A stretch of 64,000 bases of DNA from an uncultured Thermoplasmatales archaeon. GTDB taxonomy: Archaea; Thermoplasmatota; E2; UBA202; DSCA01. Position numbers and translations under genes: made by a program. Of this stretch, positions 1,612-50,849 are shown piece after piece (the first letter of the stretch is position 1; each line of letters starts with the position of its first letter). The DNA lies in NCBI GenBank assembly GCA_964514975.1, contig CAZESS010000001.1, forward strand, positions 35,736-99,735. The letters are read 5' to 3'. A model generated the notes under the pieces. That model saw only the letters and a list, made by a program, of their open reading frames with translations, ran no database searches and was not told the origin of the DNA.

Positions 1612-1637
1612 ACCTCGTTGTGTATTACGGTATTTGG

Positions 1638-4600
1638 ATGGGTGACATTCAGACCTATTTTTCGGAGATAGAGCGGCATGTTGAGCGATGCTACGGCATT
1701 GCGGAGAAGGCTCGTGCCAGGGGCTACGACCCCACCAGGGAGGTCGAGGTCCCGACGGCCAACGATTTTGCGGAACGCGTCGAGGAGCTTGTCGGGCCGG
1801 AGGGCATCGCCTCAGTTATCCGCAAACGCCTTGCGGATATGAGCCGCGAGCAGACGGCGCTGTCCGTTGCCATCGACATCGCCGAGGAACACGCGGGCAG
1901 CACCGAGCAGACGGTCGATCAGGCGGTGCGGACGGGCCTCGCCATCCTGACGGAGGGCGTCCTGGTGGCGCCTATCGAGGGCATCTCGGCGGTGAAAATC
2001 GGGAGCAACGCCGACGGCGGCAGCTACGTCGACCTCTATTTTGCCGGTCCCATCCGCTCCGCTGGCGGCACGGGCGAGGCCATGAGCGTGCTCATCGCCG
2101 ACGTGGTCCGCCGCAGGCTCGACATCGGCCGCTACCGGCCGACGGATGACGAGGTCGAGCGGTACAAGGAGGAGGTCCCCCTGTATGACCGCATCACGAC
2201 GCTGCAGTATTCCCCCTCGCTTGAGGAAATCGAGACCATCGTCCGCAACTGCCCTGTCTGCATCAACGGTGAGCCGACGGAGCAGAAAGAGGTGACGGGC
2301 AAGCGAAACCTGCCGCGGGTACACACCAACCGGGTCCGGGGCGGCGCCTGCCTGGTCATCGCCGAGGGACTGTGCCTCAAGGCGCCCAAGCTCCTGAAAC
2401 ATGTCGACAGCATGCAGCTCGAGGGATGGGACTTCCTCAATGCGTTCATACAGGACAACGGGGAGGAATCCCGCACCATCGCCCCGTCGGCGAAATACAT
2501 GAAAAGCCTCATCGCCGGCCGCCCCGTGTTTTCGCATCCCTCCAGCAAGGGTGGATTCCGCCTGCGTTACGGCCGCGGCCGGACCTGCGGACTGGCGTCA
2601 ACCGCCATCCATCCGGCGGCGATGCACATCCTCGACGACTTCGTTGCCCTGGGAACGCAGCTCAAAACCGAGCGGCCCGGCAAGGGAACCATCGGGACGA
2701 GCTGCACGTCCATCGAGGGGCCCATGGTCCTGCTCGACAGCGGCGACTTCGTTCAGCTTTACACGTCGGCGGAGGCACAGGAGGTAAAGGAGCACATCCA
2801 GGAAATCATCGACCTCGGCGAAATTTTGGTTCCCTTCGGCGAGTTCGTCGAAAACAACGCCATCCTGCCGCAGGCAAGCTACTGCCATGAATGGTGGATA
2901 CAGGAACTGGAGGAAGCCATCCAGGTCACCGACGAGGACATGGCGGCGGAGCATGTAGCCGAGCGACTTGGCCGGACGATGTCGCTTCATGAGCCATCGC
3001 CGGAGGAAGCGTTTTTCATCGCGGAGACGTTCGACGTGCCGCTCCATCCACGGCACACGCTCTTCTGGCATGACCTTTCCACTGACGACATAGCTGCGCT
3101 CGCCTATGCGCTCCAGCAGGCATCCTACAACGATGGCCGCCTCGAGATACCGAATGATGGAGAGGTCAAGGAGCTGCTCATGCAGCTGGGCGCCCTGCAC
3201 GTGGAAAACGAGACACATGACAGGCTCATATTGGACCGGTGTGCGCTTCCGCTGCTGCGCTGCTGCGGCTATAGGGTGGAGGACGGCCGGGTCAGGCAGC
3301 ATACATCGCCGGGGTCGGTCGACGCCACGGATGTGCTGGAGCTCGTATCGGCGCTCGCCGGCGTTTCCGTCAGGGCGAGAGCTCCCTCGCGCATCGGCAC
3401 CCGGATGGGCCGGCCGGAAAAAGCGGCGAAGCGAACCATGCGAGCGACGCCCCATGTGCTGTTTCCCGTCGGGCGGGCCGGCGGGCGAGAGCGACTGGTC
3501 AATGCTGCAGCGCGGGCGAACAAGATATCGTTCGAGGCGGGATCCCGGCAGTGCCAGCGCTGCGGCAACGTCACCTACAAGACCCGCTGCCAGTGCGGCG
3601 GCACCACCGTTTCCACGGGACGAATCGAGCGGCGGGAGGTCAAGCTGTACATGGAGGTCGACGAGGCCAAGGAGCGCATCGGCATGGTGCACATGCCCGA
3701 CAAGGTCAAGGGCGTCATCGGGCTGTCATCCCGGAGCAAGACCCCGGAGAGCCTGGAGAAGGGATTGCTCAGGGCGAAGCATGACATCTACGTGTTCAAG
3801 GATGGCACCGCTCGTTTCGACATGACCAACATGCCGCTCACTCACTTTAAACCGGAGGAGATCGGGACATCGGTGGAGCGACTCCGCGAGCTCGGCTACA
3901 CTCATGACTGGCGAGGGGACCCCCTCGAACGGCCTGACCAGGTCTGCGAGCTCAGGGTGCAGGATGTCATCCCGTCATGCTCGTGCGGCCGGTATCTCGC
4001 TCGGGTCGCCCGGTTCATCGACGAGCTCCTCGAACACTATTACGACATGGAGCCCTTCTACAACGTTGACGATCCCGCGGACCTTATCGGCAGCATGGTG
4101 GTCGGCATGTCTCCGCACACCTCCGCCGGGGCGGTCGGCCGCATCATCGGGTTCATCGACGCCGCCGTGTGCTGCGCCCACCCGTTCTATCATGCGGCCA
4201 AGCGCCGGAACTGCGACGGCGACGAGGACACCCTGATGCTCCTGATGGACGTGCTGGTCAATTTTTCGCTGGAATACATCCCTGAGAAGCGGGGCGGCCA
4301 CATGGACCTGCCCCTGGTGCTCGCCACCCGGATATCGCCCGCGGAGATCGACAAGGAGGCGGAAAACCTGGACGTGCTTTCCCGCTACCCGCTCCCGTTT
4401 TTCCAGGCGACGACACGTCACGCGCACCCAAAAGAGGTGGAGGAGGAGATGGATCTCGTTGCCGGTCGCATCGGCACCGGTCGGGAATACGACGGCTTCG
4501 GGTTCACCCATGACACCGGGGACATCGCCGACGGCGTCACCGTCTCGGCATACAAGACGCTGGGCAAGATGGAGGAAAAATTGTATGCGCAGCTCGCCCT

Positions 4601-4964
4601 GGCTCGAATCATCCGCGCCGTCGACGAAAGCGACGTTGCAGCCAGGGTGATACAGACACATTTCCTGCCCGACCTCATCGGCAACCTCAGGGCGTTCACC
4701 AAGCAGCAGGTCCGCTGCGTCAAATGCAACACCAAATACCGGCGCATCCCGCTCAAGGGGCGGTGCACCAACTGCGGCAAATCGCTGACGCTGACCGTCC
4801 ACGAAAAGTCAATCAAAAAATACCTGGAGCCCGCCAAGCGCATCATAGAGGACTTCGAGGTGCCCACCTACACCAGGCAGCGCCTTCTTTTGTTCGAAAA
4901 ATCCGCCGAGTCATTGTTCACCAACGACAAGGTCACGCAGACGAAGCTGCCGGGCTTCGGATAA
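1638..4964 (+). CDS. polC: DNA polymerase D large subunit (DP2)
   Basis: GLAILTEGVLVAPIEG, YFAGPIRSAGGT, GGFRLRYGR, KRRNCDGDED catalytic motif and C-terminal CxxC zinc fingers. ATG at 1638 with TTTAAA about 30 nt upstream. Confidence 0.97.
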   Translation: MGDIQTYFSEIERHVERCYGIAEKARARGYDPTREVEVPTANDFAERVEELVGPEGIASVIRKRLADMSREQTALSVAIDIAEEHAGSTEQTVDQAVRTGLAILTEGVLVAPIEGISAVKIGSNADGGSYVDLYFAGPIRSAGGTGEAMSVLIADVVRRRLDIGRYRPTDDEVERYKEEVPLYDRITTLQYSPSLEEIETIVRNCPVCINGEPTEQKEVTGKRNLPRVHTNRVRGGACLVIAEGLCLKAPKLLKHVDSMQLEGWDFLNAFIQDNGEESRTIAPSAKYMKSLIAGRPVFSHPSSKGGFRLRYGRGRTCGLASTAIHPAAMHILDDFVALGTQLKTERPGKGTIGTSCTSIEGPMVLLDSGDFVQLYTSAEAQEVKEHIQEIIDLGEILVPFGEFVENNAILPQASYCHEWWIQELEEAIQVTDEDMAAEHVAERLGRTMSLHEPSPEEAFFIAETFDVPLHPRHTLFWHDLSTDDIAALAYALQQASYNDGRLEIPNDGEVKELLMQLGALHVENETHDRLILDRCALPLLRCCGYRVEDGRVRQHTSPGSVDATDVLELVSALAGVSVRARAPSRIGTRMGRPEKAAKRTMRATPHVLFPVGRAGGRERLVNAAARANKISFEAGSRQCQRCGNVTYKTRCQCGGTTVSTGRIERREVKLYMEVDEAKERIGMVHMPDKVKGVIGLSSRSKTPESLEKGLLRAKHDIYVFKDGTARFDMTNMPLTHFKPEEIGTSVERLRELGYTHDWRGDPLERPDQVCELRVQDVIPSCSCGRYLARVARFIDELLEHYYDMEPFYNVDDPADLIGSMVVGMSPHTSAGAVGRIIGFIDAAVCCAHPFYHAAKRRNCDGDEDTLMLLMDVLVNFSLEYIPEKRGGHMDLPLVLATRISPAEIDKEAENLDVLSRYPLPFFQATTRHAHPKEVEEEMDLVAGRIGTGREYDGFGFTHDTGDIADGVTVSAYKTLGKMEEKLYAQLALARIIRAVDESDVAARVIQTHFLPDLIGNLRAFTKQQVRCVKCNTKYRRIPLKGRCTNCGKSLTLTVHEKSIKKYLEPAKRIIEDFEVPTYTRQRLLLFEKSAESLFTNDKVTQTKLPGFG

Positions 4965-22120: not shown

Positions 22121-23341
22121 CTATCGTATCTGGAAGCGGAGGATGCCTGCCACGCCGCCGAACGCGTCCAGCAGGATGCTGCCCTCCTCCGTTTCGTTGG
22201 AGATGATGGTGACCTCGGATGAGACCTCCTCGGCCATGTCGGCATATTCCTCGAGCATGTCCTTTTTTTCCTGGATGGTGACGGAGCCATCGCATTCCGG
22301 GCAGGAGAGCTCCTTGGGGTTTTTGACGATGTCCTCGCCGCTATAGCCGCATTCGTCGCAGGAAAACGTGACCTTGTACTTGCGGAGCTCGTCGGAGAGA
22401 ATGAGCTCGTCGACGGCGCCAATGGTCAGCGCTCGTTTGACTTCGTCTTCGCCGTAGACGGCCAGCCCTGAGCCGGTTTTGAGTTCGCGCATGAACCGGT
22501 TCATGACTTTTTTTTCTCGGATGATGTCCATTTCTTCGAGGTCGTCGATGGCCGTGTCGACGAGCTCTCCGAGCCCGAATTCGTCGGTGTAGCCCGTGTC
22601 GTAGATGCCGATGAGGCTGTCTTTGACCCGGTAGTCGAGGTAGTCCTTGTTGGCGAATGTCCGCTTGGTGGGGCCGGGGCCGCCGAGCAGGATGCCTCTG
22701 AGGTTCTCTTTGTTCAGGAACAGCTGCGAGGCTTTTTCCCCGGCTTTTTTGAACCATTCGTTGGCCGCGATTTCGATGAGCCGTTCGAATCGGCCGGCTG
22801 ACTGGCCGCCGCGGCTGTGTTTGCCGGGCACCCGGGAGGTCATGTAGGCGGCCATCTCGATGTTGTTGCCGTGGAGGAAGCCGATGGTGCATTCCCGCCG
22901 GTCGATGAGCAGCAAACCGTAGACGTCTTTTTCTTCCAGCATCTCCTTGAGCGGCTCGATGTAGAACGAGGAGTCGCAGCGGTACAGGTACATGGAGATG
23001 GGTATCGGCGGCTCGATTATCTCGGAGACCATCTCTGTCTTGTTGCCGTCCGTCTTGCCTTCGCCGACGAAGAAGACGACCCCGTTTTCCGGGGGCTGGT
23101 TGAAGTATTTGAGTCGGGACATGATGGACTCGATGGCGGAGAGCACGTTTTTCCGGGTCTGCTTGGACTTGATGTTGGAGGACTGCGAGTATTCGTCGCG
23201 CAGCTGCGCCGTGACGTCGGATATCTGCTTGTCCGGCGGTATGTAGAGCGAGATGAGCTCGGTGTGCTGCCCTGATACCTGCTCGAGCTCTTCGAGCTGC
23301 CGTTTGAATCGATATTTTTCCGCCGGTGAGAGGCGCTGCAT
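22121..23341 (-). CDS. prf1: Peptide chain release factor aRF1
   Basis: TELISLYIPP, NIKS, YRCDS, GGQSA.RF and a C-terminal zinc-ribbon insert. Alternative start at 23404. Confidence 0.96.
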   Translation of the reverse strand: MQRLSPAEKYRFKRQLEELEQVSGQHTELISLYIPPDKQISDVTAQLRDEYSQSSNIKSKQTRKNVLSAIESIMSRLKYFNQPPENGVVFFVGEGKTDGNKTEMVSEIIEPPIPISMYLYRCDSSFYIEPLKEMLEEKDVYGLLLIDRRECTIGFLHGNNIEMAAYMTSRVPGKHSRGGQSAGRFERLIEIAANEWFKKAGEKASQLFLNKENLRGILLGGPGPTKRTFANKDYLDYRVKDSLIGIYDTGYTDEFGLGELVDTAIDDLEEMDIIREKKVMNRFMRELKTGSGLAVYGEDEVKRALTIGAVDELILSDELRKYKVTFSCDECGYSGEDIVKNPKELSCPECDGSVTIQEKKDMLEEYADMAEEVSSEVTIISNETEEGSILLDAFGGVAGILRFQIR

Positions 23342-23493
23342 GCCCGGCAAATCCCGCCCTCTTTTTAAACTTTGGGCATCGCCCTCTGGCAGAAGGCCGG
23401 CCATGTCGACGCCCGGTCCTTGTTCAATTTGGTTTAAACCAACTTAAACTCCGGTTTAAAATAAATGTTTTAATATGCCATCGATACAGCAGT

Positions 23494-27588: not shown

Positions 27589-27968
27589 TGCTCGCATGGA
27601 TATTCGTCATCGGCCTCCTCATCGGCTTCCTCGCCGGCGTCGCCATCATCTACCGGCGCGGCGTCAAGCCATGGAAAGAGGAGGCGCAGGAGGCCAGGCA
27701 CCGCAAGCGCTCGCTGTCCACCACCTACGGCAAAATCACCGAACAGTTCGCACCCTTCATGGACCGATATCCCTACAACGCAAAGCATTTCAGGTTCATC
27801 GGCTCTCCCATAGACGGCATACAGTTCACCGACGACGCCATCTACCTCGTCGAAATCAAGAGCGCCGGCAGCCAGCTCACGGCCAGACAGCGCAACATCC
27901 GGCAGCTCGTCGAAGATGGCCACGTGTTCTGGTACACGTTCGAGGTGAACGATGGGCGTCAACCTTAA
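27576..27968 (+). CDS. Membrane-anchored Holliday-junction-resolvase-related endonuclease (PD-(D/E)xK)
   Basis: N-terminal TM, GKITEQFAPF, FRFIGSPIDGI, EIKS, L...Q..I...V..G.V. Confidence 0.85.
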   Translation: MDPLMLAWIFVIGLLIGFLAGVAIIYRRGVKPWKEEAQEARHRKRSLSTTYGKITEQFAPFMDRYPYNAKHFRFIGSPIDGIQFTDDAIYLVEIKSAGSQLTARQRNIRQLVEDGHVFWYTFEVNDGRQP

Positions 27969-28962
27969 ACCGCTCACCGAGCCACACGAGCGCACCTGGA
28001 ACGACCTCCGGCACAGCAGCGTCGCCATCGACGCATACAACGCGCTCCACCAGTTTCTCTCCATCATCCGGCAGCGTGACGGCACCCCGCTCAAGGATGC
28101 CAAGGGCCGCATTACCTCGCATCTCACCGGATTGTTCTACCGGACTGCCAACCTGATAGAACGGGACATCCGGCCCGTCTATGTCTTCGACGGCGAACCC
28201 CACGAGCTCAAACAGGACACCCTGGACATCCGGCGGGCCCGCAAGGAACAGGCCAAACAGGACTGGCAGGCAGCAAAACAGCGAGGCGACCTCGAAGAAG
28301 CCAAAAAAAAGGCGCAGCAGACCTCGACGCTCACCTGGGACCGGGTCGAGGAAGCACAGCAACTGCTCCAGGCGCTCGGCATCCCCTACATCGAGGCACC
28401 AGGCGAGGGCGAAGCGCAGGCATCATACATGTGCAGCCGGGGCGACGTCGACTATGCAGGGTCGCAGGACTTCGACTGCCTGCTGTTCGGCGCCCCACAA
28501 TTGTTGCGCAATCTCACCATCTCCGGGCGGCGGAAGCTCCCAGGCAAACAAAAATGGGTGCAGATATCCCCGGAAACCATCACGCTTAAAGAGCTGCTCG
28601 AAGCACACGACATCACCCGGGAGCAGCTCGTCGATATCGCCATCCTCATGGGCACCGACTTCAACGACGGCATCAAGGGCATTGGCCCCAAGACCGGGCT
28701 CAAGCTGGTCAAAAAACACGGCGACATCGAATCCATCGACCGGGACATCACCATCGACCACCTCGACGACATCCGCAGCATCTTCCTGCACCCCCGGACC
28801 ACGGACGACTACCACGTCGAATGGCAGCCCGTCGACGAGGACGCAACCAGGGCATATCTCTGTGGGGAGCACCAGTTCAGCCGGCAGCGCGTGGACAGCA
28901 CCCTCGACAAGTTCCAGGGCTTCGCCGAATCGCTCGACCAGAAAAACCTGCTCGACTTTTAA
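27952..28962 (+). CDS. fen: Flap endonuclease 1
   Basis: MGV, DAYNALHQFL.IIRQ.DG, YVFDG, APGEGEAQA, SQDFD.LLFG, GTDFN.GIKGIGPK, C-terminal PIP-like QKNLLDF. Confidence 0.97.
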   Translation: MGVNLKPLTEPHERTWNDLRHSSVAIDAYNALHQFLSIIRQRDGTPLKDAKGRITSHLTGLFYRTANLIERDIRPVYVFDGEPHELKQDTLDIRRARKEQAKQDWQAAKQRGDLEEAKKKAQQTSTLTWDRVEEAQQLLQALGIPYIEAPGEGEAQASYMCSRGDVDYAGSQDFDCLLFGAPQLLRNLTISGRRKLPGKQKWVQISPETITLKELLEAHDITREQLVDIAILMGTDFNDGIKGIGPKTGLKLVKKHGDIESIDRDITIDHLDDIRSIFLHPRTTDDYHVEWQPVDEDATRAYLCGEHQFSRQRVDSTLDKFQGFAESLDQKNLLDF

Positions 28963-40900: not shown

Positions 40901-43900
40901 CGTTGAACGGTGCGGTATCATACAATACCAATGTTACCTATACGGACAAGGGCTTCGTCGTCGAGGCGGATTATGTCAACATCACGGGTTTCAACCTGGC
41001 CTATTGGGGAATGAATCCGGCTCCATGTGGCGGCGTGCTGGTCAATCATTCCAGCCACTGTAACATCTCCGGCAACATCATCCAGGATGACGCGGATGGC
41101 ATCAAGCTCAACCATTCGGATGACAACATCGTGTACAACAACATCATTTCCGGCCAGTCGGATTTCGGCATCTGGCTGGTGGACGCCGCGAGCAACGTCA
41201 TCGAGGCGAACAACATCACCGACAACTCTTTCGGCATATACTATGAGACGTCTGAACCTGTGCCTGCCTCATGGAACACCATCGTGGCTAACAACATTTC
41301 CTCTAACGATTACTGGGGCATCTACATGGAGGACACGGACAACGAGACCATCATGTACAACTGGTTTTATGGCAACGGCATCACGGAGGGCGGCGCGGTT
41401 TATTTCTGGGACGTTGAGAACAGCACCGTAGCGGAGAACGAGATGTACGGCAACCTCGAGGGCATCGTGCTGGAGAATTGTTACAATGTGACCGTCGAGT
41501 CCAACATCATCATCGGGCTGTCTATACCTGACGATGGCGGCGAGACCTACACCGTGTCTGTCAACACGGGCGAGGGATGGGAGGTCTGTGAGGAGCTTCG
41601 TTTCCCCCGATATTATCGAACTGAGCATGTCAGATTGCCCTCATCGACAGGTGACACCTATCGGGTGCGCATCGAGCAGCATGGCGGCATCGCCGCGCAT
41701 GTCGACTATGTCGCCCTGGGTCGCGGCGCGTTACACACCCCTGACCAGGCCATCGTGCATGGCGACGGGACGAGCGTGATGGACAAGCTGCTTGCCCGGG
41801 ACAACGACGTTGCAAGTGCATGGGAGCAAACCATTGAGCTGACCTGGAACGAGCGATTCACTGAGCCCGTGCTGGTGATGGTGGCCAACGAGGAGCAGCC
41901 GATGGAGATGGAGATACCGCTGCGGACCCCGTCGGTGATGACCCCCGACAACATGGAGCCATATACGCTGCAAAACAACGGCGCCATCGAGGTCGATGGC
42001 ACACCTGACGGGCTGGGTGAGGCTGACTTTTCTGATTTCTGGATGCCCATGAGCGGTCATCCATGGGGAGATACCCAGGTATGGCTTCGCTCGGATGGCG
42101 AGTATCTCTACGGCGTGATGGACATAACATCGGATAACACCTGGGATGACACCGGCTGGGCGTCGCTCTACGTTGCGGTTGGCGACGAGGTACAGGAGTT
42201 CCGGGTTGATACTGACGACCAGACCTATGGCACCCCCGGTTTCGTGTACACCGACGCTGTTGCATGGCAGCACGTGTATTACGAGTTCAAAATACCGCTG
42301 GCGGACATCGAGGCCTCCCTCGGTGACACCATCCGTGTTGGCTACGGCAGCTATGGAACAAGTGCGCAGATAATTGGCAGCACCGGTGTTCGCATCAGCG
42401 GTGGCCGTACCAACAACACCGTCCGAGGCAACGTGCTGGAGGAACACGCCCATGCCATCGCGTTGCAGTGGGTGGATAACGAGACCATCGAGGACAACAT
42501 TTTGTACAATAATTCCTATGGCATATGGGTGGAGATGTGCCGCGATGTCAATGTGACCGGCAACATCATCGACAACGCTCCCGGCTGGGGGGAGGAGGGC
42601 ATCCATGTAGCCGATATCGGGATGATGGTTGGCTATCCGGTTGATGAGTATTGCTACAACAACGTCAGCGACAACGTGGTGATGAACTGCTCATATGGCA
42701 TCTATCTCCAGTATACCGACAACGAGACCGTGGCGGACAACATCCTGTACAACAACACATATGGCATCTTGCTCGAGGGATGCCGCGACATAGACGTGAC
42801 CGGCAACCTGGTCGACAATCCGCCGATGTGGGGAGAGTTTGGCATAGTGGTTACGGACATGTACTTGAACGGAGACACCGCTCCAGAGCGGTGCTTTAAC
42901 AACCTCAGCTACAACATGGTTGCAAACAGCTCGTATGGCATCGCCCTTGTATCTACAGATAACGAGACCGTCTATGCCAACACCGTCACTAACTGCACAT
43001 CATATGGCATAGCCCTTGACGCGGTGAGAGATTCCCTTATATGGGACAACGTTCTGACTGCCAACGGGTACTCCTCCATGTATATCAGTCCGGCGAGCGG
43101 TATTATGCTCTATGACTGTTACAATGTGACCGTGCTCTCCAACGATATCAACGGCAGCTTCGTCGGCGATAACGCCGGCATATCCATCATTGGGATGAGC
43201 GAGGGCGGAGGCAGTGTCGAGGGCTCGTACAATACCATTGTGGATAACACGATCTGGCAGTGCTTCGGCGCCATCGCACTATTCGGTACCGACCACGAAA
43301 CACTTGAGGGCAACACAATGTATGACAACGGGCAATACGGCATCTACATTGCGGCCTCGTATGACAGCGTTATCGCGAACTGCACGGTGTCCGATACCGC
43401 AGGATATGACTTCTGGTCTGATTCACCCTCGTATAATAACACGGTCGCCAATCTCACCGTATCGAGTTATCCGACATCGGTTGATTTCACCTATGGCAAC
43501 GGCATCGCGTTGAAGGGCGTTGAACATGCAGAGCTGCATCCCAATCCTGGCTACGCTGACATCGGCAAGTTCTTGAATATCACCAACGTGACCGCGACCT
43601 CGTGGATCAACATCAGCATCCATTACGAGGAGGACGACCTCGACCAAACGGATGAGGATACGCTGATGCTCCATCGGCTGAACGATACATCATGGGAGCT
43701 AGCGAATCCGGACTACGAGATGGTCAACACGGCTGACAACTATCTGCGGGCCAACCTATCCGAGTTCAGCATCTTCGGCGTGTTCGGTGATTTCACCCGG
43801 TACTGGATGAACCTGTCGGAGGGCTGGAACATGGTCACGCTGCCGGTGTGGAACAGCAGCTTCGTCAATGCGCAGGATCTCGGCGAATGGATACCGGATT

Positions 43901-44298
43901 GCACGATGGTATCCCGGTGGAACCCCCAGGAGCAGATGTATGTCACCCATGTGGTTGGCTATGGATCAGGCTTCAACCTGGTGAACGGCTCGGGCTACTT
44001 TGTATATGTGACCGCTGATGTATCCAAGGAATACACGGGCATGGGGCAGGCAATGGTGAACCTGACCGTGATGGACGGCTACAATTTGCTCGGCTGGACG
44101 CAGACGATCGACACCAATGCATCTGCGTTGCTGGCATCGATCGAGAACTGCCTGAAGCTCGGCATGTATGACCCCTCGCTTGGATGGCTGCCGCAGTATT
44201 TCGCTGGGTCGCCTGCACCGCTGAACTTCGAGGTCGTGGCGGGTGACGGCGTGTTCGTGTACGTCACCACGGGCAGCAGCACCTGGAACGGCAGCTAG
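37951..44298 (+). CDS. Giant (2115 aa) secreted beta-helix surface glycoprotein with shared C-terminus
   Basis: Signal peptide; three IQ.AI/GI.N/E beta-helix caps; DATYNWWG.PSGP motif; AGGAGG RBS. Confidence 0.9.
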   Translation: MKRTTHILAIAGVVAVAALAVMAFGATQADAETINVPSDYSAIQQAIDNATSDDTIDIASGYTHDGTRIIVDKDLTIEGNNAVIDAGIDIESGADVVINNLTIQDLSTADTSSWSGLSTAGSEWIVVGVRSGTLTATNLDITQTNTLSAQYVNLVGISVQNGEEMTLNDSTFDLTNVNYSLTYGVYAQQGATGVSLNDNTFNLWSERRTMFIGTEFYATGEQVPIQMTNNVFNAAGSDFGYWLQVFSGSSITREMVNNYIDGNLTAGRISHVYLGGWYDYISGGPCDAIIYDGQSIQTAIDEASPGHTICVAAGTYTENIVIPKPLVLKGPNAGIDPNTGNRVAEANITAKITVDANDVSILGFNISDSTAMDFYNGNLDNLTISWNYIIGMNDGIQVNYFEWSGTSYDSHNVTISHNYIGDMTGTATRSPFYIGGLVSSDISYNTFSNTLWGGIQLAGCSDLDFTYNRFVNITEKKSYWVQFTKDNENVRILYNTGINTTGGVKLYGNDQTDYHIDFEIAHNTFNSLVPPDSGTGSHQEPHITVWDFYGAYADGLDIHDNKINQELDNLIAGTSSTSAMAFFGVLDDITVQNNNLTVTGSLASASNYYGMYIRGGPKSYTIQGNSFIGSSADGTMGIKLAINEHPAYTGYASDGTTVLIPWSPSDTDIQITQNAFDAFDYGLKFFRNYPQEDGLVAGATVDVNYNTIQNSVTAGISNAGGQQIVDATYNWWGHPSGPNHTSNPSKDNGMGDNVSDNVHFSPWLNAPYPGGKAIDYWNPISVDGEADINEKANADTTVNITTTEEQNVTVQNYVGDPQPGAGSPQGIGPIGKYVNVSVENETAVEWPVNITIYYTQADLDAAGIPETMLAAMLYYNETSGDWEAYNDTGVNTTYSEDGYEGYVWANAWNSDQLSPKAQSGFTDVWVDDDQDPSWYDTRHVRTIQEGIGNVTEGGTVHVWDGLYRGTNILVDKSVDIIGNTSVDALNGAVSYNTNVTYTDKGFVVEADYVNITGFNLAYWGMNPAPCGGVLVNHSSHCNISGNIIQDDADGIKLNHSDDNIVYNNIISGQSDFGIWLVDAASNVIEANNITDNSFGIYYETSEPVPASWNTIVANNISSNDYWGIYMEDTDNETIMYNWFYGNGITEGGAVYFWDVENSTVAENEMYGNLEGIVLENCYNVTVESNIIIGLSIPDDGGETYTVSVNTGEGWEVCEELRFPRYYRTEHVRLPSSTGDTYRVRIEQHGGIAAHVDYVALGRGALHTPDQAIVHGDGTSVMDKLLARDNDVASAWEQTIELTWNERFTEPVLVMVANEEQPMEMEIPLRTPSVMTPDNMEPYTLQNNGAIEVDGTPDGLGEADFSDFWMPMSGHPWGDTQVWLRSDGEYLYGVMDITSDNTWDDTGWASLYVAVGDEVQEFRVDTDDQTYGTPGFVYTDAVAWQHVYYEFKIPLADIEASLGDTIRVGYGSYGTSAQIIGSTGVRISGGRTNNTVRGNVLEEHAHAIALQWVDNETIEDNILYNNSYGIWVEMCRDVNVTGNIIDNAPGWGEEGIHVADIGMMVGYPVDEYCYNNVSDNVVMNCSYGIYLQYTDNETVADNILYNNTYGILLEGCRDIDVTGNLVDNPPMWGEFGIVVTDMYLNGDTAPERCFNNLSYNMVANSSYGIALVSTDNETVYANTVTNCTSYGIALDAVRDSLIWDNVLTANGYSSMYISPASGIMLYDCYNVTVLSNDINGSFVGDNAGISIIGMSEGGGSVEGSYNTIVDNTIWQCFGAIALFGTDHETLEGNTMYDNGQYGIYIAASYDSVIANCTVSDTAGYDFWSDSPSYNNTVANLTVSSYPTSVDFTYGNGIALKGVEHAELHPNPGYADIGKFLNITNVTATSWINISIHYEEDDLDQTDEDTLMLHRLNDTSWELANPDYEMVNTADNYLRANLSEFSIFGVFGDFTRYWMNLSEGWNMVTLPVWNSSFVNAQDLGEWIPDCTMVSRWNPQEQMYVTHVVGYGSGFNLVNGSGYFVYVTADVSKEYTGMGQAMVNLTVMDGYNLLGWTQTIDTNASALLASIENCLKLGMYDPSLGWLPQYFAGSPAPLNFEVVAGDGVFVYVTTGSSTWNGS
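43447..44298 (+). repeat. 852-bp C-terminal cassette, copy 3
   Basis: Essentially identical to copy 1 over about 43526-44014; shares AMVN and DPSLG variants with copy 2. Confidence 0.95.
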
Positions 44299-44345
44299 CC
44301 CCTTCCCCCTCTTTTTCCCCTCTCTTTTCTCTTTTTTTCTCCCAA
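44299..44345 (+). terminator. Pyrimidine/oligo-T tract, probable archaeal terminator
   Basis: Long C/T-only tract after the stop; a similar tract lies at 37723-37757. Confidence 0.5.
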
Positions 44346-44377
44346 AACCTTTTTTAACGCGCGCTTGATGTCTTAGC

Positions 44378-44956
44378 ATGGCTGACGAGCAGGAGTTACA
44401 GCATCTCAGAGTCGTTCTTGATTACCTTCCCTGTGAGGACTGCGAGCACCGCGTTCCCGAGGAGGAGCGCCGGTACATGTGCTCCATGTGCGGCAGGATC
44501 AACAGAAACGTTTCAGCGGAGATAGCGGTGCCCCGCTGGCGAACCGAAAACGGCAGCGTTGTCGCAGTGGAGGGCCGTGACATCGAGGAGCTGCGCCCCG
44601 AGGTGTCGATGAAAACGGAGACGGAGGAGGAACCCGAGGAGCCAGAGGGGCCAGAGGAGGACATGACCGAGGAAATCGAGGTGCTCGAGATTGGCGTCGA
44701 CGTGCCGGAGGAGGAAGAGGAACCCGATGAGGAGGAGCTTCCCGAATGGGAAACCGTGGAGGAAACACCGCACACCGTCGGCGAATACACCCTGTACACC
44801 AAGGAGGCAACCCTGCGAGGCGGACGCAAACAGCAGATATTTTTTTATGCGAAAAAAGAAAAAAAGGATGCCACTCCCTGCGCCAAGCCCGAGGGCTACG
44901 ATGTCAAGGTCAACGAAAACACCGGCTTGCCCGTCCTCAAAAAGAAAAAAAAGTAG
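44378..44956 (+). CDS. Hypothetical protein: N-terminal CxxC..CxxC, acidic linker, basic C-terminal domain
   Basis: CEDC/CSMC, Glu-rich middle, YTLY...LRGG..Q..FF...PEGY.V..N..TGLP.LKK. TTTTTAA 27 nt upstream. Confidence 0.75.
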   Translation: MADEQELQHLRVVLDYLPCEDCEHRVPEEERRYMCSMCGRINRNVSAEIAVPRWRTENGSVVAVEGRDIEELRPEVSMKTETEEEPEEPEGPEEDMTEEIEVLEIGVDVPEEEEEPDEEELPEWETVEETPHTVGEYTLYTKEATLRGGRKQQIFFYAKKEKKDATPCAKPEGYDVKVNENTGLPVLKKKKK

Positions 44957-44962
44957 CCGACA

Positions 44963-45967
44963 ATGCACATCGAGGAGTTCGACTACCCTCTGCCACAGGA
45001 GGCTATCGCGCAGCATCCCGCCATCCCCCGGGACAGCTGCCGCCTGCTCGTCATGGATGACGGCATCCGTCATCATCGTTTCACCGACATCACGGGCTAT
45101 CTCCACGAGGGAGACGTCCTGGTGGTCAATGACACCCGGGTCAGGCATGCCCGCATCCACGCCCGGAAGAACACCGGCGGAAAAATCGAGCTGCTCGTGC
45201 TCGGGCAGGAAAACGGCGCATACCGATGCATGATCAAGGGACGCGTCCACGAGGGCACCGCTGTCGAGCTGCCCGACGGCGAAACCGCCACCGTTATCCG
45301 CAAAAACGGTGGCATCTGCCACCTGGACATCCCACACGGGATTGAGCAGCTCGAGGCGATGGGCGAGATGCCGCTGCCACCGTACATCAAAGCCGACCTC
45401 GCCGCCGAGACAAAGGAGCGATACCAGAGCGTCTACGCCGACGAAAAAGGATCCGTGGCCGCGCCGACAGCCGGCCTGCATTTCACTCCCGAGCTGCTCG
45501 ACCGCATCCGCCACAAGGGTGTCACCATCGCCGCCATCACCCTGCACGTCGGCATCGGCACCTTTATGCCCATCCGGGACAGGCACGTCGAAAACCACAG
45601 CATGCAGCGCGAATGGTACCGCATCGATGGGAGAGCAGCCGCAGCCATCAACCGGGCATCGGGCGACGTCATCGCCGTGGGCACCACCACCATCCGGGCG
45701 CTGGAGAGCGCCACCGTAGACGGCGAGGTGCAGCCCGGCGAGCGGAGCACCGACCTGTATATCTATCCCGGATACCGCTGGCAATCGCCGGTCGACGGCA
45801 TGCTCACCAACTTCCATCTGCCGCAGTCCACACCCCTGCTCATGGTCTGTGCCTACGCCGGCAGAGACTGCATCATGCGGGCATACCGGGAGGCGCTCCG
45901 GCATGGCTACCGGTTTCTCAGCTTCGGCGACGCGATGTATATCCGGGGGGCGCCATGTTCGAGATAG
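44963..45967 (+). CDS. queA: S-adenosylmethionine:tRNA ribosyltransferase-isomerase
   Basis: FDY.LP...IAQ.P, VNDTRV..AR, PLPPYI, YQSVYA..GSVAAPTAGLHF, TLHVG.GTF, AVGTT..RALES, TNFHLP.ST, YRF.SFGDAM. Confidence 0.96.
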   Translation: MHIEEFDYPLPQEAIAQHPAIPRDSCRLLVMDDGIRHHRFTDITGYLHEGDVLVVNDTRVRHARIHARKNTGGKIELLVLGQENGAYRCMIKGRVHEGTAVELPDGETATVIRKNGGICHLDIPHGIEQLEAMGEMPLPPYIKADLAAETKERYQSVYADEKGSVAAPTAGLHFTPELLDRIRHKGVTIAAITLHVGIGTFMPIRDRHVENHSMQREWYRIDGRAAAAINRASGDVIAVGTTTIRALESATVDGEVQPGERSTDLYIYPGYRWQSPVDGMLTNFHLPQSTPLLMVCAYAGRDCIMRAYREALRHGYRFLSFGDAMYIRGAPCSR

Positions 45968-47013
45968 CGGCGGAGCAGGAACAGGCCAGAGCCGGCGTGC
46001 TGCACACCAGCCACGGCGACATTGCCACCCCGGTGTTTTTGCCCGTCGCGACCAAGGGAGCCATCAAGACGCTGACGCCGGAGGAGGCATGGAGGACGGG
46101 CAGCAGGATGCTCATCGTCAACTCGCTGCATCTCTACCGCCGGGGCATGTCGCGCATCCGGCGTGCCGGCGGCATACACGAGTTCATGCAGTGGAATGGT
46201 GCCGTCGTCAGCGACAGCGGAGGATTCCAGCTGATAAAACAGTTTCCCTGCGAGATAGACACCGACGGCATCCGGTTCACCATGCCCGACGGCTCCAGCG
46301 ACCTGTTCACCCCCGAAAAATCAGTAGCGGTGCAGGAGCAGCTCGGTGTCGACATCGCCCTCGCGCTCGACGACTGCCCGTCCCACCCGGCGGAGCAGGA
46401 GCGCGTCGCCCGGGCGGTCGACACCACCATCAGATGGGCAGAGCGATGCCAGGGCGATGGCCGCTTCGCCATCCTGCAGGGCGGTATCGATGCCGGACAG
46501 CGTGTGCGCTGCGCCCGCGCCATCGCCGGGATGGACTTCGACGGCTACGCCATCGGCGGCCTCTGCATCGGGGAGCCAAAGGACACGATGCACCGCATGG
46601 TCGCGGCGACCATCCCGCATCTGCCATCCGGGAAGCCCCGCCACCTTATGGGCGTCGGCTCACCCGGGGACATCTGGCGCGCCGTCGCCGCCGGCGTCGA
46701 CATCTTCGACAGCGCCTATCCGACGCGCAACGCCCGGCATGGCACCATTTTCATTCCAGGCGGCAAGGTCAACCTGGGGCGAGCGAAGACATCCGGCAGC
46801 GTGATAGACGACACATGCGACTGCTACGCCTGCCGGCATTTCAGCCTCGACTACCTCAACCACCTGTTCCGGGAAAAAGACCCGCTTGGGCCGCGGCTGG
46901 CGACGGTCCACAACCTCACCCATGTCAACCGGGTCGTTGCGGCGGCGCGGGAGCGCATCCTGGCGGGAAAAACGCTAAAAACGAACACGGGCATACAGTT
47001 TGATGCTGTTTGA
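45955..47013 (+). CDS. tgt: Bacterial-type tRNA-guanine transglycosylase
   Basis: TPVFLPVAT, DSGGFQ, LDDCP, QGG, GGLCIGE, HLMGVG, DIFDS..PTR.ARHG, Zn site CDCYAC...HN. About 350 aa with no arcTGT C-terminal PUA domain. Confidence 0.93.
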   Translation: MFEIAAEQEQARAGVLHTSHGDIATPVFLPVATKGAIKTLTPEEAWRTGSRMLIVNSLHLYRRGMSRIRRAGGIHEFMQWNGAVVSDSGGFQLIKQFPCEIDTDGIRFTMPDGSSDLFTPEKSVAVQEQLGVDIALALDDCPSHPAEQERVARAVDTTIRWAERCQGDGRFAILQGGIDAGQRVRCARAIAGMDFDGYAIGGLCIGEPKDTMHRMVAATIPHLPSGKPRHLMGVGSPGDIWRAVAAGVDIFDSAYPTRNARHGTIFIPGGKVNLGRAKTSGSVIDDTCDCYACRHFSLDYLNHLFREKDPLGPRLATVHNLTHVNRVVAAARERILAGKTLKTNTGIQFDAV

Positions 47014-47716
47014 AACCAATCACGGGGTCATCGTCGCCTGTGACGTCGACACCCATAACGCTTTTGAACATCTCGTCCAGCAGACCTGTCACCTCGAGGG
47101 TGTCGTCGGATACAAAATCGGTACCCTCCTGGGTCTGACCTATGGCCTCAGGCCGCTCACCGAGATGGTGGCGGAGCACTGCAATCTGCCCGTCATCTAC
47201 GATCATCAAAAAGCGGCGACGGACATCCCGCAGATGGGCGAGCCCTTTGCCCGGGTCTGCAAAAACGGTGGCGTCGACAGCGTCATCCTGTTCCCCCAGG
47301 CGGGCCCTGAAACCGAAAAAGCGTTCATCCGGGCCGTCATCGAGCATGACATGGTGCCGATGGTCGGCGGCGAGATGACCCATCCCGGTTATCTCACGGA
47401 GGAGCAGGGATACATCCGGAGCGACGCGCCACCCGACATGTACCGCCTTGCCGCCCGGCATGATGTATCCTATTTCATCGTCCCCGGCAACCGGCCGGCG
47501 GCGCTACAGCGCTACCATGACCTGCTCACCGGCATTATGGACATGCCGGCGTTCTGCATGCCCGGCATCGGCCGGCAGGGGGGCTCCATCCGCAGCGCCT
47601 TCGAGCAGCTTGGCAGCACGGCGAAATATGCCATTGTGGGCTCCGCCATCTACACGAGCGATGACCCCGAGGCAGCGGCACGTGAGCTGGCCCGGGAAGC
47701 CCTGGAGTTCGAGTGA
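47003..47716 (+). CDS. pyrF: Orotidine 5'-phosphate decarboxylase family (atypical DHQK...DIP motif)
   Basis: IVACD, GYKIG, YDHQKAATDIP, PGIGRQGG, IVGSAIY; adjacent to a PRTase. Confidence 0.8.
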   Translation: MLFETNHGVIVACDVDTHNAFEHLVQQTCHLEGVVGYKIGTLLGLTYGLRPLTEMVAEHCNLPVIYDHQKAATDIPQMGEPFARVCKNGGVDSVILFPQAGPETEKAFIRAVIEHDMVPMVGGEMTHPGYLTEEQGYIRSDAPPDMYRLAARHDVSYFIVPGNRPAALQRYHDLLTGIMDMPAFCMPGIGRQGGSIRSAFEQLGSTAKYAIVGSAIYTSDDPEAAARELAREALEFE

Positions 47717-47720
47717 TATC

Positions 47721-48437
47721 ATGGAAGCCAAAGACATCATGGAGGAACTGTACCGGCACGGCCTCGTCAAAACATGGCACCGTGACCGGCCCGAGGGATG
47801 GACACTGGTGTCCGGTCTCTGGAGCCCTTTTTACATCAACCTCAGGGCGCTCCCCGGTCATCCCCGGCTGTTCATGGCGGTCGGCGAACGCCTGGGCGAG
47901 ATGATACTGGAGCGCTGCGATCTCGACAGCGTCATGGGCATCGCCATGGCCGGTATCCCGCTTGCATCGGCGGTTGCGGTGCAGCACGGCGTCCCCATGC
48001 TCTACACCCGGAAGCTCAGGGGCGTGAAATCGCTGGAGGCGCTCCGCGAGGCCGCACAGCAGTACGGGCAGCATTCCCTGGTCGAGGGAGCCATGCATGA
48101 CGGCGACCGGGTGGTCGCGCTCGATGATTTGGTCACGCGGTTTGACAGCAAGCTCGTCGCCGTCGAGCAGCTCGCGATGGAGGCAGACCGCCGCGGGGTG
48201 GATATATCCTGCTGCGACGTCGCGGTGCTCATCGACCGGGAGCAAGGCGCCGGCGACATCGCCGCCCGGCACGGCATCAGGCTGCACGCGTTGATACCAT
48301 TCCAGAGCCATGGCATCGACTGGCTCCACGATGTCTTCACCGACGTGGAATACGAGGTCATCAGCGACTACCTGCACGACAGCGACAAATACCAGGACGA
48401 GCAACGCCGCCGTGACATCATCGACTCCTTCAAATAA
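47721..48437 (+). CDS. pyrE: Orotate phosphoribosyltransferase-like
   Basis: TLVSG..SPFYINLR, GIP.A, RK, YG...VEG, PRPP loop VALDDLVT, LIDREQG. Confidence 0.82.
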   Translation: MEAKDIMEELYRHGLVKTWHRDRPEGWTLVSGLWSPFYINLRALPGHPRLFMAVGERLGEMILERCDLDSVMGIAMAGIPLASAVAVQHGVPMLYTRKLRGVKSLEALREAAQQYGQHSLVEGAMHDGDRVVALDDLVTRFDSKLVAVEQLAMEADRRGVDISCCDVAVLIDREQGAGDIAARHGIRLHALIPFQSHGIDWLHDVFTDVEYEVISDYLHDSDKYQDEQRRRDIIDSFK

Positions 48438-49473
48438 TGCGCCGGCGGAAGCCGCGCATGGTCCACCATCGCACGAGCTTTTCGAGCAGCCCGGGCAGCC
48501 GTCCGTCCATGCTCCAGTGGTGCCATGACAGGATACCATGGCGGCTGCCCAGGCTGATGATCAGGGGGATGGGCCGCGGCCGATACACGGCCATCGACGC
48601 GTCATCATTTTTGGTGACGTTTTTCACGATAATCCGGGCGTGGCGCTCGGCGTTCTGCGCCGTTTTTTCCTCTTTGATGGCGGTGACGTCGCCGCCGGCG
48701 TAGATGTGCGGATGGCCGGGCAGCTGCAAAAACCGGTTCACCTGTACGGCGTTGCGTTCGTCGAGCACGTCGCCCAGCCCATCAAGAAAAAAGGGGTTGT
48801 GGCGGATGCCCGTGCACCAGACCACGACGTCCGCCGCTATCTCCCGCCCCATGTCGGTAACATACATGCCGGCATGGCGGTCGACCACCTTTTCCTCCAT
48901 TACCAGCCGGATGCCATGTCGCTCCAGGAACTGGCCGGCATGTTGCGAGGCCGACGGCGGGTTTCGCTCGAGCAGCCGGCGGTGCGCATGCACCAGGGTT
49001 ATATGAAGGCGAGGGAGTTTCTCCACGAGCTCGGCGGCCAGCTCCACGCCGATCAGCCCGCCACCCACAATCAGCACCCGGTCGGCGTCACGGAGCGCCG
49101 CGGCGAGCGCCATCGCCTCCCCTGTGGAGGTGAGCGTAAACATATCGGTGGTGTCGTCGAGCAGCACGGGATATTCGACGCCGGATGCGACGATCGCCCG
49201 GTCAAACCGTATCTGCACGCTGTCGGTTTCGATCACGTGTGGGGTCATCCGGACGACGTCGCCGGTAATGATATCCGCATGCGGCAAAAAATCCCGGTAG
49301 GGAACCGATAACATGCGACTGCGGCCCGGCTCGCAGACCAGCCGGTGGACACCCGGCGTGTACTCAAAAAACGGTGTCCGGTCAACCAATATGACCTGCA
49401 CCCCGGGGCGCTGCTGCAGCTTTCTGGCGACCAGCGCACCGCAGAAGCCTCCCCCGACGATGGCGACATCCAT
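48430..49473 (-). CDS. FAD-dependent pyridine nucleotide-disulfide oxidoreductase (NDH-2/AIF/FSP1-like)
   Basis: IVGGGFCG, IVGGGLIGVELAAE, WCTG, VNRFLQ, YAGGD. Confidence 0.88.
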   Translation of the reverse strand: MDVAIVGGGFCGALVARKLQQRPGVQVILVDRTPFFEYTPGVHRLVCEPGRSRMLSVPYRDFLPHADIITGDVVRMTPHVIETDSVQIRFDRAIVASGVEYPVLLDDTTDMFTLTSTGEAMALAAALRDADRVLIVGGGLIGVELAAELVEKLPRLHITLVHAHRRLLERNPPSASQHAGQFLERHGIRLVMEEKVVDRHAGMYVTDMGREIAADVVVWCTGIRHNPFFLDGLGDVLDERNAVQVNRFLQLPGHPHIYAGGDVTAIKEEKTAQNAERHARIIVKNVTKNDDASMAVYRPRPIPLIISLGSRHGILSWHHWSMDGRLPGLLEKLVRWWTMRGFRRRII

Positions 49474-49475
49474 GG

Positions 49476-50849
49476 TCAGCCATGCCGGTAGCAGTTCAGT
49501 GTTTTCACGTTCACGAACTCGTGCAGCCCGTGCCGGGCGAGCTCCCGGCCGATGCCGCTCTGCTTTATGCCGCCGAAGGGCAGCCGGGGGTCGGACTTGG
49601 TGATATGGTTGACAAACATGCAGCCTGCCTCTATCCGCCGGGCGATGGCCATGCCCCGCGCTGTATCGCGCGTCCACACGCTGCCACCCAGCCCGAACCG
49701 GGTTTTGTTGGCCAATGCTACCGCCTCCGCATCGTCGGCTACGGTGAACACCGGCGCAACGGGCCCGAACACCTCGTTCCTGGCGACGCGCATGTCACAG
49801 GTGACATCGGCGAGCACCGTCGGCTGAAAGAAAAAGCCGGGCCTGTCCAGCCCGTGGCCCCCGGTCACAAGGTGTGCCCCGCCATCCAGGGCATCCTCGA
49901 CGAAGGTCTCCATCTGCGCCACGGCTGTCTCGGATGCCAGCGGACCCGCCTCGGTCGCCATGTCCAATGGGTCGCCCACCCTGAGATGCTCCATCTTATC
50001 AGCGAGCATTTCGATGAACATCTCGGCTACATCTGCATGGACGATAAACCGCTTCGCGGCGATACAGCTCTGCCCCGTGTTTATCATCCGCCCACGGACC
50101 GCCTGCGCTGCAACAGCGTCCATGTCGACGTCGTCCAGAACGATGAACGGGTCGCTGCCACCCAGCTCCAGCACCATTTTTTTGAGATGCCGTCCCGCGG
50201 TCGCGGCCACCGCCCGGCCTGCATCGACGCTCCCGGTCAGCGAGACACCCCGCACGACGTCGGCGGCAACCAGCCGCTCGATCAGGTCATGTCCGGCTAT
50301 AACGGTCCGGAAGACATCCACGGGAAACCCGGCCTCCCGCAATGCTGCCTCGATGGCGAGCGCGCTCCCCGTGCAGATGCTGGCATGCTTGAGCAGCACC
50401 GTGTTGCCCGCCAGGAGCGCTGGAATGGCGCAGCGGAGCGCCTGCCAGAACGGAAAGTTCCAGGGCATGACGGCCAGGATGACACCCAATGGCTGAAACA
50501 CGATGCGGTGCTCGAGGCCGTCCGCCTCGACATGTTCGTCGGCCAGCCATGCGGGGGCATTGTCCGCATATACCTCGGCCATCCATGCACATTTCTCTAT
50601 CTCGGCCACCGACTCCCGCAGGGGCTTGCCCATTTCCCGGGTCATCAGCTCCGCATATTCCTGCCTGTGTTCGCGGAGCACCGCTGCCAGGCGTTGCACA
50701 TATGGCACTCGCTCCTCGACGCTCAGCCTGCGCCATTCCCCGAAGGCCAGGTGCGCCCGATCCGCGATGTCGAACAGCTCGTCCTCGGCCATCGTCTCGT
50801 AGGTGGCGATGGGCTGCCCTGTCGCCGGGTTCACGGTTTCAACCATCAT
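49476..50849 (-). CDS. NAD(P)-dependent aldehyde dehydrogenase (succinate-semialdehyde dehydrogenase-like)
   Basis: NPATG, MPWNFP, LTGS, LELGGSDP, GQSC, EVFGP, PFGG.K.SG.GRE. Confidence 0.93.
   Translation of the reverse strand: MMVETVNPATGQPIATYETMAEDELFDIADRAHLAFGEWRRLSVEERVPYVQRLAAVLREHRQEYAELMTREMGKPLRESVAEIEKCAWMAEVYADNAPAWLADEHVEADGLEHRIVFQPLGVILAVMPWNFPFWQALRCAIPALLAGNTVLLKHASICTGSALAIEAALREAGFPVDVFRTVIAGHDLIERLVAADVVRGVSLTGSVDAGRAVAATAGRHLKKMVLELGGSDPFIVLDDVDMDAVAAQAVRGRMINTGQSCIAAKRFIVHADVAEMFIEMLADKMEHLRVGDPLDMATEAGPLASETAVAQMETFVEDALDGGAHLVTGGHGLDRPGFFFQPTVLADVTCDMRVARNEVFGPVAPVFTVADDAEAVALANKTRFGLGGSVWTRDTARGMAIARRIEAGCMFVNHITKSDPRLPFGGIKQSGIGRELARHGLHEFVNVKTLNCYRHG

Follow-up and report, generated by a model that had tools for sequence, protein, structure and literature searches.

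Organization of the queA-tgt locus

We analysed a 64,000-nucleotide stretch of DNA (the window) from an uncultured Thermoplasmatales archaeon (GenBank assembly GCA_964514975.1, contig CAZESS010000001.1, positions 35,736 to 99,735 of the forward strand; GTDB lineage Archaea; Thermoplasmatota; E2; UBA202; DSCA01), which carries two genes of the bacterial pathway to the tRNA nucleoside queuosine (Q). The first, queA, is predicted to encode a tRNA preQ1(34) S-adenosylmethionine ribosyltransferase-isomerase of 334 amino acids (window positions 44963-45967, plus strand). The second, tgt, is predicted to encode a bacterial-type tRNA guanosine(34) transglycosylase of 352 amino acids that lacks a PUA domain (45955-47013, plus strand), and the two genes overlap by 13 bases. 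The tgt open reading frame (ORF) as listed spans 45613-47013; we took the ATG at 45955 as its start, which fits the family and all relatives.

The pair lies within a run of five plus-strand genes, from 44378 to 48437, that abut or overlap one another. On the 5' side, up192 (44378-44956, plus strand), which encodes an uncharacterised protein of 192 amino acids, ends 6 bases before queA. On the 3' side, a gene of the orotidine 5'-monophosphate (OMP) decarboxylase family, probable pyrF (47000-47716, plus strand), overlaps the end of tgt by 14 bases, or by 11 if the ATG at 47003 is its start, and is followed after 4 bases by an orotate phosphoribosyltransferase (OPRT)-like gene, probable pyrE (47721-48437, plus strand). 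The next gene is convergent and lies on the opposite strand (48430-49677). A TATA-like element, TTTTTTAA (44350-44357, plus strand), can be read from the sequence between up192 and the end, at 44298, of a giant surface protein gene; its centre is about 24 bases 5' of the up192 ATG, and it is a possible archaeal promoter of a leaderless transcript.

The surroundings of the pair are archaeal. The same window encodes the large subunit of PolD (1620-4964; 1492 bits), aRF1 (22121-23404, minus strand; 558.6 bits) and archaeal FEN1 (27952-28962; 464.3 bits). The guanine-plus-cytosine (GC) content of queA (0.638) and tgt (0.651) is close to that of probable pyrF (0.619), probable pyrE (0.63) and the genome's own archaeosine tRNA-guanine transglycosylase gene (arcTGT; 0.653), the genome mean being 0.577.

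QueA and Tgt belong to the bacterial queuosine families

We compared both proteins with NCBI family models that have curated cut-offs (TIGR00430, TIGR00432, NF001140 and TIGR00113), the Q-type models among them being equivalog models. QueA scores 385.3 bits against NF001140 (cut-off 324) and 343.3 bits against TIGR00113 (cut-off 267.45) over residues 1-328 of 334, and 381.2 bits against the Pfam family PF02547 (Queuosine_synth) over residues 4-327. An alignment of 25 Thermoplasmatota QueA sequences contains 51 invariant columns. Tgt scores 351.7 bits against TIGR00430 (Q_tRNA_tgt; cut-off 306.75), its residues 2-340 covering model positions 1-352 of 368, whereas its score against the archaeosine model TIGR00432 is 132.7 bits, far under the cut-off of 350. 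Because the family match spans residues 2-340 of 352, Tgt has neither a PUA domain nor any other C-terminal extension. Outside Thermoplasmatota, the best matches of both proteins are bacterial, with 44-49% identity for QueA and 40-47% for Tgt.

Against all solved structures, Tgt is best matched by bacterial tRNA-guanine transglycosylases (TGTs; E 3e-83 to 1e-74), followed by the eukaryotic catalytic subunits, while the Pyrococcus-type arcTGT 1iq8 reaches just E 2.9e-22. When Tgt is aligned with the solved bacterial enzymes, the Asp of DSGGFQ, the D-x-C motif, GGL-x-x-GE, the Asp of DxFD and the CxCxxC...H zinc site all coincide. The catalytic Asp pair is D87 in DSGGFQ and D252 in DIFDS, which we take to be Asp102 and Asp280 in the numbering of the Zymomonas enzyme; the pocket motifs are DDCP (D139, C141) and GGLCIGE (G201 to E207); and the zinc site consists of C288, C290, C293 and H319. 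Across 25 Thermoplasmatota Tgt sequences, D87, D139, C141, G201-G202-L203, G206-E207, D252, C288, C290, C293 and H319 are invariant. Judged by the residues that decide between preQ1 (7-aminomethyl-7-deazaguanine) and queuine specificity in TGTs, the pocket reads as preQ1-type, as opposed to the eukaryotic queuine type. The predicted activity is the replacement of G34 by preQ1 in tRNAs whose anticodon is GUN. For QueA, family membership and co-occurrence with Tgt, QueF and QueH suggest an S-adenosylmethionine-dependent ribosyl transfer and isomerisation.

Window Tgt thus resembles bacterial Tgt (TIGR00430; structures 10fb, 2ash and 1enu) in its full-length alignment, catalytic Asp pair, pocket motifs and zinc site, in its single catalytic domain and in being encoded beside queA, as in many bacteria. 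It differs in having an archaeal host, one that encodes arcTGT and ArcS as well, in forming a Thermoplasmatota clade of its own, and in the 40-47% identity noted above. With arcTGT/TgtA (TIGR00432; 1iq8), it shares the TIM-barrel fold of the TGT superfamily and the zinc site, but it lacks the C-terminal domains and PUA and ends 12 residues past the catalytic-domain match. Window QueA likewise matches bacterial QueA over its full length and above the equivalog cut-offs, and its gene lies directly 5' of tgt and overlaps it; instead of the yajC-secDF or ruvAB neighbours known from bacteria, it clusters with an order-specific zinc-ribbon gene (up192) and with probable pyrF and pyrE. An earlier note on this DNA, made from the sequence alone, had described an intact queA overlapping a short tgt with DDCP and GGLCIGE and no PUA extension, interlocked with pyrF and pyrE, host-like in GC, and on one contig with PolD, aRF1 and FEN1; the data above bear out this description, with the proviso that the two pyr genes score below their NCBIfam cut-offs.

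The genome encodes the remaining queuosine steps and an archaeosine branch

The host genome (G000) is a 1.96-Mb bin of 66 contigs, estimated to be 98.9% complete with 2.92% contamination, and the window lies on a 172-kb contig. Elsewhere in the bin, we found candidates for every other step. The steps to 7-cyano-7-deazaguanine (preQ0) are represented by an MptA/FolE2-type GTP cyclohydrolase on contig C4 (248.3 bits) and by a queD-queC-queE operon on contig C12, of which QueC reaches 211.4 bits (cut-off 150.3); QueD (73.9 bits, cut-off 89.25) and QueE (229.1 bits against its best model, cut-off 300) are the best matches, below their cut-offs. A unimodular QueF is encoded on contig C36 (TIGR03139, QueF-II; 154.5 bits, cut-off 86.9); it contains the Cys of the CPxxGxPDF motif, and its sequence places it with the preQ0-to-preQ1 reductases and not with the archaeosine-making QueF-like enzymes. 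QueH is encoded on contig C4 (PF02677; 206.1 bits, Pfam cut-off 23.5), with CCAPC, CQRC and CGC motifs. Because queF and queD-queC-queE are present as well, the gene content points to de novo synthesis in this genome.

The genome also encodes an arcTGT/TgtA with a PUA domain on contig C17 (531.7 bits, cut-off 350) and ArcS on contig C18 (465.7 bits, cut-off 440). By gene content, it encodes every step from GTP to queuosine beside a full archaeosine branch. The genes of tRNA-Asn(GUU), tRNA-His(GUG) and tRNA-Tyr(GUA) were found with ARAGORN, each with U33-G34-U35. The tRNA-Tyr(GUA) gene, a presumed source of queuosine substrate, contains a 15-base intron and lies just beside arcS (C18:29761-29851). 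The search that the earlier note had called for therefore succeeded for queF, queH, queD-queC-queE and a separate arcTGT, and failed for queG.

A further contig of the bin, C6 (91 kb; locus G000:C6:52000-68000), is poorer in GC (0.46) than the genome as a whole (0.577). Besides a second queC and a MetK of bacterial/eukaryotic type, it encodes the sole FolE-type GTP cyclohydrolase I of the genome, a nuclease resembling Cas4, helicases resembling UvrD and SNF2, and two tRNAs. C6 has the look of a co-binned foreign replicon, virus or contaminant, and it may hold its own 7-deazaguanine genes.

The locus is continuous in independent assemblies

Bacterial genes in a metagenome bin could stem from bacterial DNA misjoined to an archaeal contig or from binning contamination. 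The fragmentation and estimated contamination of the bin, and the foreign-looking contig C6 within it, lend some weight to this concern. We therefore looked at the locus in public sequencing runs. One run holds 96% of the sampled words of 43500-49000, and two others, X2 and X3, hold small shares (0.13 and 0.06). In an independent assembly of the first run, a Logan contig of 2615 bases matches 44272-46886 with 0 differences, covering up192, queA and most of tgt, and identical overlapping pieces at a depth of 9.7-15 tile on to 48663. The queA/tgt junction is also crossed by a contig of 1369 bases and about 92% similarity that stems from another study.

The archaeal flanks and the neighbour-like GC described above, the up192-queA-tgt order in 29 of 30 genomes of the order, and the presence of the whole pathway in single-contig archaeal genomes agree with these identical contigs. 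A chimera at this locus, which the earlier note had named as a possible refutation, is thereby removed by the independent contigs together with the comparative data, and misjoining or contamination has next to no probability.

The trait is lineage-wide in the order and patchy in the phylum

We surveyed a close set of 41 genomes (the host and 40 relatives) and an even sample of 401 Thermoplasmatota genomes from 162 genera. Within the close set, QueA is present in 34 genomes, bacterial-type Tgt in 33 (30 of them over the cut-off), QueH in 35 and QueF in 36; the genomes that lack a match are mostly incomplete. QueA occurs in 11 of 12 genomes of family f1 and in 22 of 25 of family f2, and all loci fetched at the level of the order have queA next to tgt. 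No QueA, QueH or QueF was found in G039 and G040, two genomes of the same class from other orders. The earlier note had allowed for sporadic archaeal cases; the order instead carries the trait throughout.

Across the phylum sample, QueA was found in 94 of 401 genomes and 58 of 162 genera (56 of 262 high-quality genomes), that is, in about a quarter of the sampled Thermoplasmatota genomes. None was found in three large families of this sample (f4, 0/54; f10, 0/48; f13, 0/36). Among 39 QueA loci at the level of the phylum (L210-L248), 14 have a Q-type Tgt ORF within 3 kb on either side. In family f34, the single-contig genomes G090 and G160 and the ten-contig genome G381 each encode QueA, Q-type Tgt, QueH, QueF and arcTGT, the Q-type Tgt of the two single-contig genomes scoring 448-465 bits. 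G090 QueA shares 95% identity with the QueA of a metagenome-assembled genome (MAG) titled Aciduliprofundum sp., a genus that presumably has a cultured member.

Two further patterns emerged from the survey. In nine genomes of family f38, the match to QueA is no more than weak (E 1e-36 to 1e-63, from about model position 20 onwards; for example G255:C1:1398680-1399615), and neither a Q-type Tgt nor QueH was found in the closed f38 genome G255; the f38 proteins are probably a QueA-related family with another function. G039, which belongs to family f4, has a lone Q-type Tgt on its contig C13 (461.7 bits) that groups with bacteria in the tree described below; it represents either a separate acquisition, perhaps for salvage, or contamination.

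Phylogenies follow taxonomy and exclude a recent acquisition

We built trees of Tgt and QueA after dropping ORFs below 200 bits or with fewer than 300 (Tgt) or 290 (QueA) aligned residues and de-replicating at 70% identity for bacteria and 95% for archaea, which kept 81 of 177 Tgt rows and 102 of 186 QueA rows. All trees are quick maximum-likelihood searches with support from the Shimodaira-Hasegawa-like approximate likelihood ratio test (SH-aLRT) only, and the bacterial rows (37 in the Tgt tree) are the best matches of one query, a small and biased sample. In the unrooted Tgt tree of 81 rows, a branch with SH-aLRT 100 separates 43 archaeal rows from the 37 bacterial rows and the G039 Tgt. All 43 belong to Thermoplasmatota, except for one that is titled only "uncultured archaeon". 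The order forms one clade (100) that splits into f1 (95) and f2 (99). The QueA tree (102 rows) likewise contains the order as one clade (99) that splits into f1 (95) and f2 (96); here 59 archaeal rows fall on one side of a weaker branch (90), and three, from f11 and f21, fall on the bacterial side.

These trees bear on whether the genes were acquired recently. Nearly all bacteria have queuosine genes, their occurrence in archaea is patchy, and the best matches of QueA and Tgt outside Thermoplasmatota are bacterial, as would be expected if this genome or genus had taken them up by recent horizontal transfer and their GC had already been ameliorated. However, sequences from the order group in a single clade whose division into families mirrors the taxonomy exactly, the Thermoplasmatota-clade Tgt rows stand apart from the sampled bacteria (SH-aLRT 100 unrooted, 96 with an outgroup), and identity to other Thermoplasmatota families is no higher than identity to bacteria, which indicates an old split. 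The trees exclude a recent acquisition and fit long vertical inheritance with losses; these data contradict a recent transfer, which is very improbable.

The opposite possibility is that the Tgt/QueA set is ancestral to Thermoplasmatota, or older still in Archaea, and was lost repeatedly instead of being acquired from bacteria. When the Tgt tree was rooted with five arcTGT sequences under a mixture model, the root fell between the archaeal clade (96) and the bacteria (74), so that the archaeal rows are not nested among bacteria; the spread of QueA over 58 sampled genera points the same way. The outgroup branch that parts window Tgt from arcTGT, however, is 4.4 changes per column long, which makes the root unreliable, and because of this length and the small, biased set of bacterial rows, the rooting does not establish an archaeal origin. 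The three archaeal rows among bacteria in the QueA tree, the support of only 90 for its archaeal side, and the large families without QueA also speak against an ancestral set, which we consider improbable. No bacterial sister group that could represent a donor lineage appeared in the trees, whose bacterial rows are the best matches of one query. Since archaeal Tgt is not nested in the sampled bacteria, a bacterial donor is suggested by the distribution and not by the trees. The earlier note's expectation that Tgt would group with the bacterial type and not with arcTGT was thus borne out, and of its proposal of an acquired, ameliorated pathway that makes Q, the pathway stands in that the gene set is complete, while the trees leave "acquired" unproven and depict the genes as old and vertically inherited.

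A predicted route to queuosine and the weight of alternatives

Based on these observations, we propose that queA and tgt are working Thermoplasmatota genes at the tRNA-bound core of a bacterial-type queuosine pathway that is complete and runs de novo, and we put the probability of this reading at roughly 80%. Going by the families to which the enzymes belong, GTP would be converted to preQ0 by the MptA-type cyclohydrolase (C4) together with QueD, QueE and QueC (C12). Part of this preQ0 would be inserted at position 15 of tRNA by arcTGT, and ArcS would then complete archaeosine. QueF (C36) would reduce preQ0 to preQ1, which window Tgt would exchange for G34 in tRNAs with GUN anticodons; window QueA would then add the epoxycyclopentanediol ring from S-adenosylmethionine to give epoxyqueuosine (oQ), and QueH (C4) would convert this to queuosine. 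One precursor supply would be common to both branches, because arcTGT and ArcS also use preQ0. With all pathway genes as well as arcTGT and ArcS in the genome, the archaeon is therefore probably able to make Q34 as well as archaeosine. The co-occurrence of Tgt, QueA, QueF and QueH is in keeping with this route, since one would not expect it unless preQ1-tRNA, oQ-tRNA and Q-tRNA were each produced.

Several points weigh against this reading. QueG (TIGR00276) was not found in the host genome, so that the last step depends on QueH alone. The pocket site that we take to be Val233 of the Zymomonas enzyme is Ile205 in window Tgt, and this Ile is nearly invariant in the Thermoplasmatota clade. QueF matches what we assume to be the NADPH-binding motif at 7 of 8 positions, one Lys being replaced by Gln. 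ARAGORN found no tRNA-Asp(GUC) anywhere in the 98.9%-complete assembly, and it is by prediction that a bacterial-type Tgt would accept archaeal tRNAs. Finally, the public runs listed for 43500-49000 include no RNA run, and the literature searched contains no biochemical or mass-spectrometric report of Q in archaeal tRNA.

The main residual doubt is that the genes are functional and that their product or target is not bacterial Q34: the pathway could stop at preQ1 or epoxyqueuosine, or modify another tRNA position or another nucleic acid. The archaeal enzymes of the set are known from sequence alone, the Ile at the Val233 site leaves room for such a change, and the co-oriented, almost abutting up192 gene, kept across the order, could mean a lineage-specific twist. 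On the other hand, every catalytic, pocket and zinc residue that coincides with bacterial TGT is invariant, QueA, QueF and QueH co-occur with Tgt across the order, and a separate arcTGT is available in the genome for position 15. A different product or target is therefore unlikely, albeit with a chance large enough to keep in view. The finding itself is real and well supported, and the genes are probably functional.

Relation to known archaeal queuosine genes

The trait is old and lineage-wide, and comparable cases from other archaea have already been published. The bacterial queuosine pathway, complete or partial, has been reported in 34 archaeal genomes, 12 of them DPANN, with QueA, a QueH-like protein and Tgt co-localised, and Methanosarcinales are named in a figure legend (Castelle et al. 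2021, PMC8204110). The late enzymes there, QueA, a QueH-type reductase and a Q-type Tgt, are the same as here and partly co-localised (PMC8204110). Unlike in those archaea, queH is not co-localised here, and the trait is order-wide (compare Castelle et al. 2021, PMC8204110). The archaea that its available text names are DPANN and Methanosarcinales; it contains no link between queuosine and Thermoplasmatota, which may nonetheless be among the 34 genomes, and its single mention of "Thermoplasmatales" concerns another matter (PMC8204110). A literature search that combined queuosine with the names of Thermoplasmatota lineages returned no paper on the matter.

In reviews and recent papers, queuosine is still given to Bacteria and Eukarya, and archaeosine to Archaea. 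Archaea were said to be unable to synthesise Q in a 2017 paper (PMC5372724), and Q is still assigned to Bacteria and Eukarya in a 2026 preprint (10.64898/2026.04.08.717055). If the proposed pathway is correct, one cell runs both 7-deazaguanine branches of tRNA modification off a single preQ0 pool, which would be relevant to the way archaea tune decoding through GUN anticodons and to the time at which the two TGT types diverged along with their pathways. The proposal is open to a direct test; the full set occurs in closed genomes of f34, one of them with the QueA that is 95% identical to that of the Aciduliprofundum-titled MAG.

up192 and the flanking genes

The up192 protein contains an N-terminal Cys4 zinc ribbon, in which C19, C22, C35 and C38 are invariant, followed by a linker of acidic character and by a C-terminal beta domain that is basic and conserved, and it has no Pfam or NCBIfam match. 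The gene lies directly 5' of queA in 29 of the 30 genomes of the order for which the locus was fetched, and in the one remaining genome it starts 273 bases 5' of queA. The queA loci of other Thermoplasmatota families showed no up192. Its homologues form 42 clusters, and the named ones are Thermoplasmatota or Thermoplasmatales. The AlphaFold2 model has a mean predicted local distance difference test (pLDDT) score of 59.5, with only residues from about 130 to 190 near 80, and gave no Foldseek match in the PDB at E 0.001. Complex predictions of up192 with QueA and Tgt, run with alignments, scored 0.00 in two runs, which speaks neither for nor against binding. These features make up192 a possible order-specific operon member. 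One could go further and suppose that Q34, far from being confined to bacteria and eukaryotes, is a normal, ancient feature of about a quarter of Thermoplasmatota and that in this order the enzymes work with a co-transcribed up192, which would either adapt them to archaeal tRNAs or control the partition of preQ0 between archaeosine and queuosine; we offer this as a speculative and rather doubtful idea.

The pyrimidine genes at the 3' end of the cluster are less widely conserved. Probable pyrF scores 47.2 bits against the Pfam OMPdecase family (cut-off 27) and 69.4 bits against NCBIfam PRK13813, below the cut-off of 208; the genome's sole other OMPdecase-family match lies in a 437-amino-acid frame on contig C11. 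Probable pyrE scores 66.6 bits against TIGR00336, below the cut-off of 106.8, and has no Pfam match at E 0.001, but it is still the genome's best match to the pyrE model. Despite the scores below NCBIfam cut-offs, the two are the genome's best candidates and the probable pyrF and pyrE. In family f1, 8 of 11 genomes have genes resembling pyrF and pyrE after tgt, as against 0 of the f2 loci, and this linkage to tgt is probably incidental. Upstream of the cluster, the GC content of the window falls to 0.44-0.56 between 29000 and 44300, over three giant secreted-protein genes (1626, 1225 and 2115 amino acids) that stop just 5' of the queuosine cluster.

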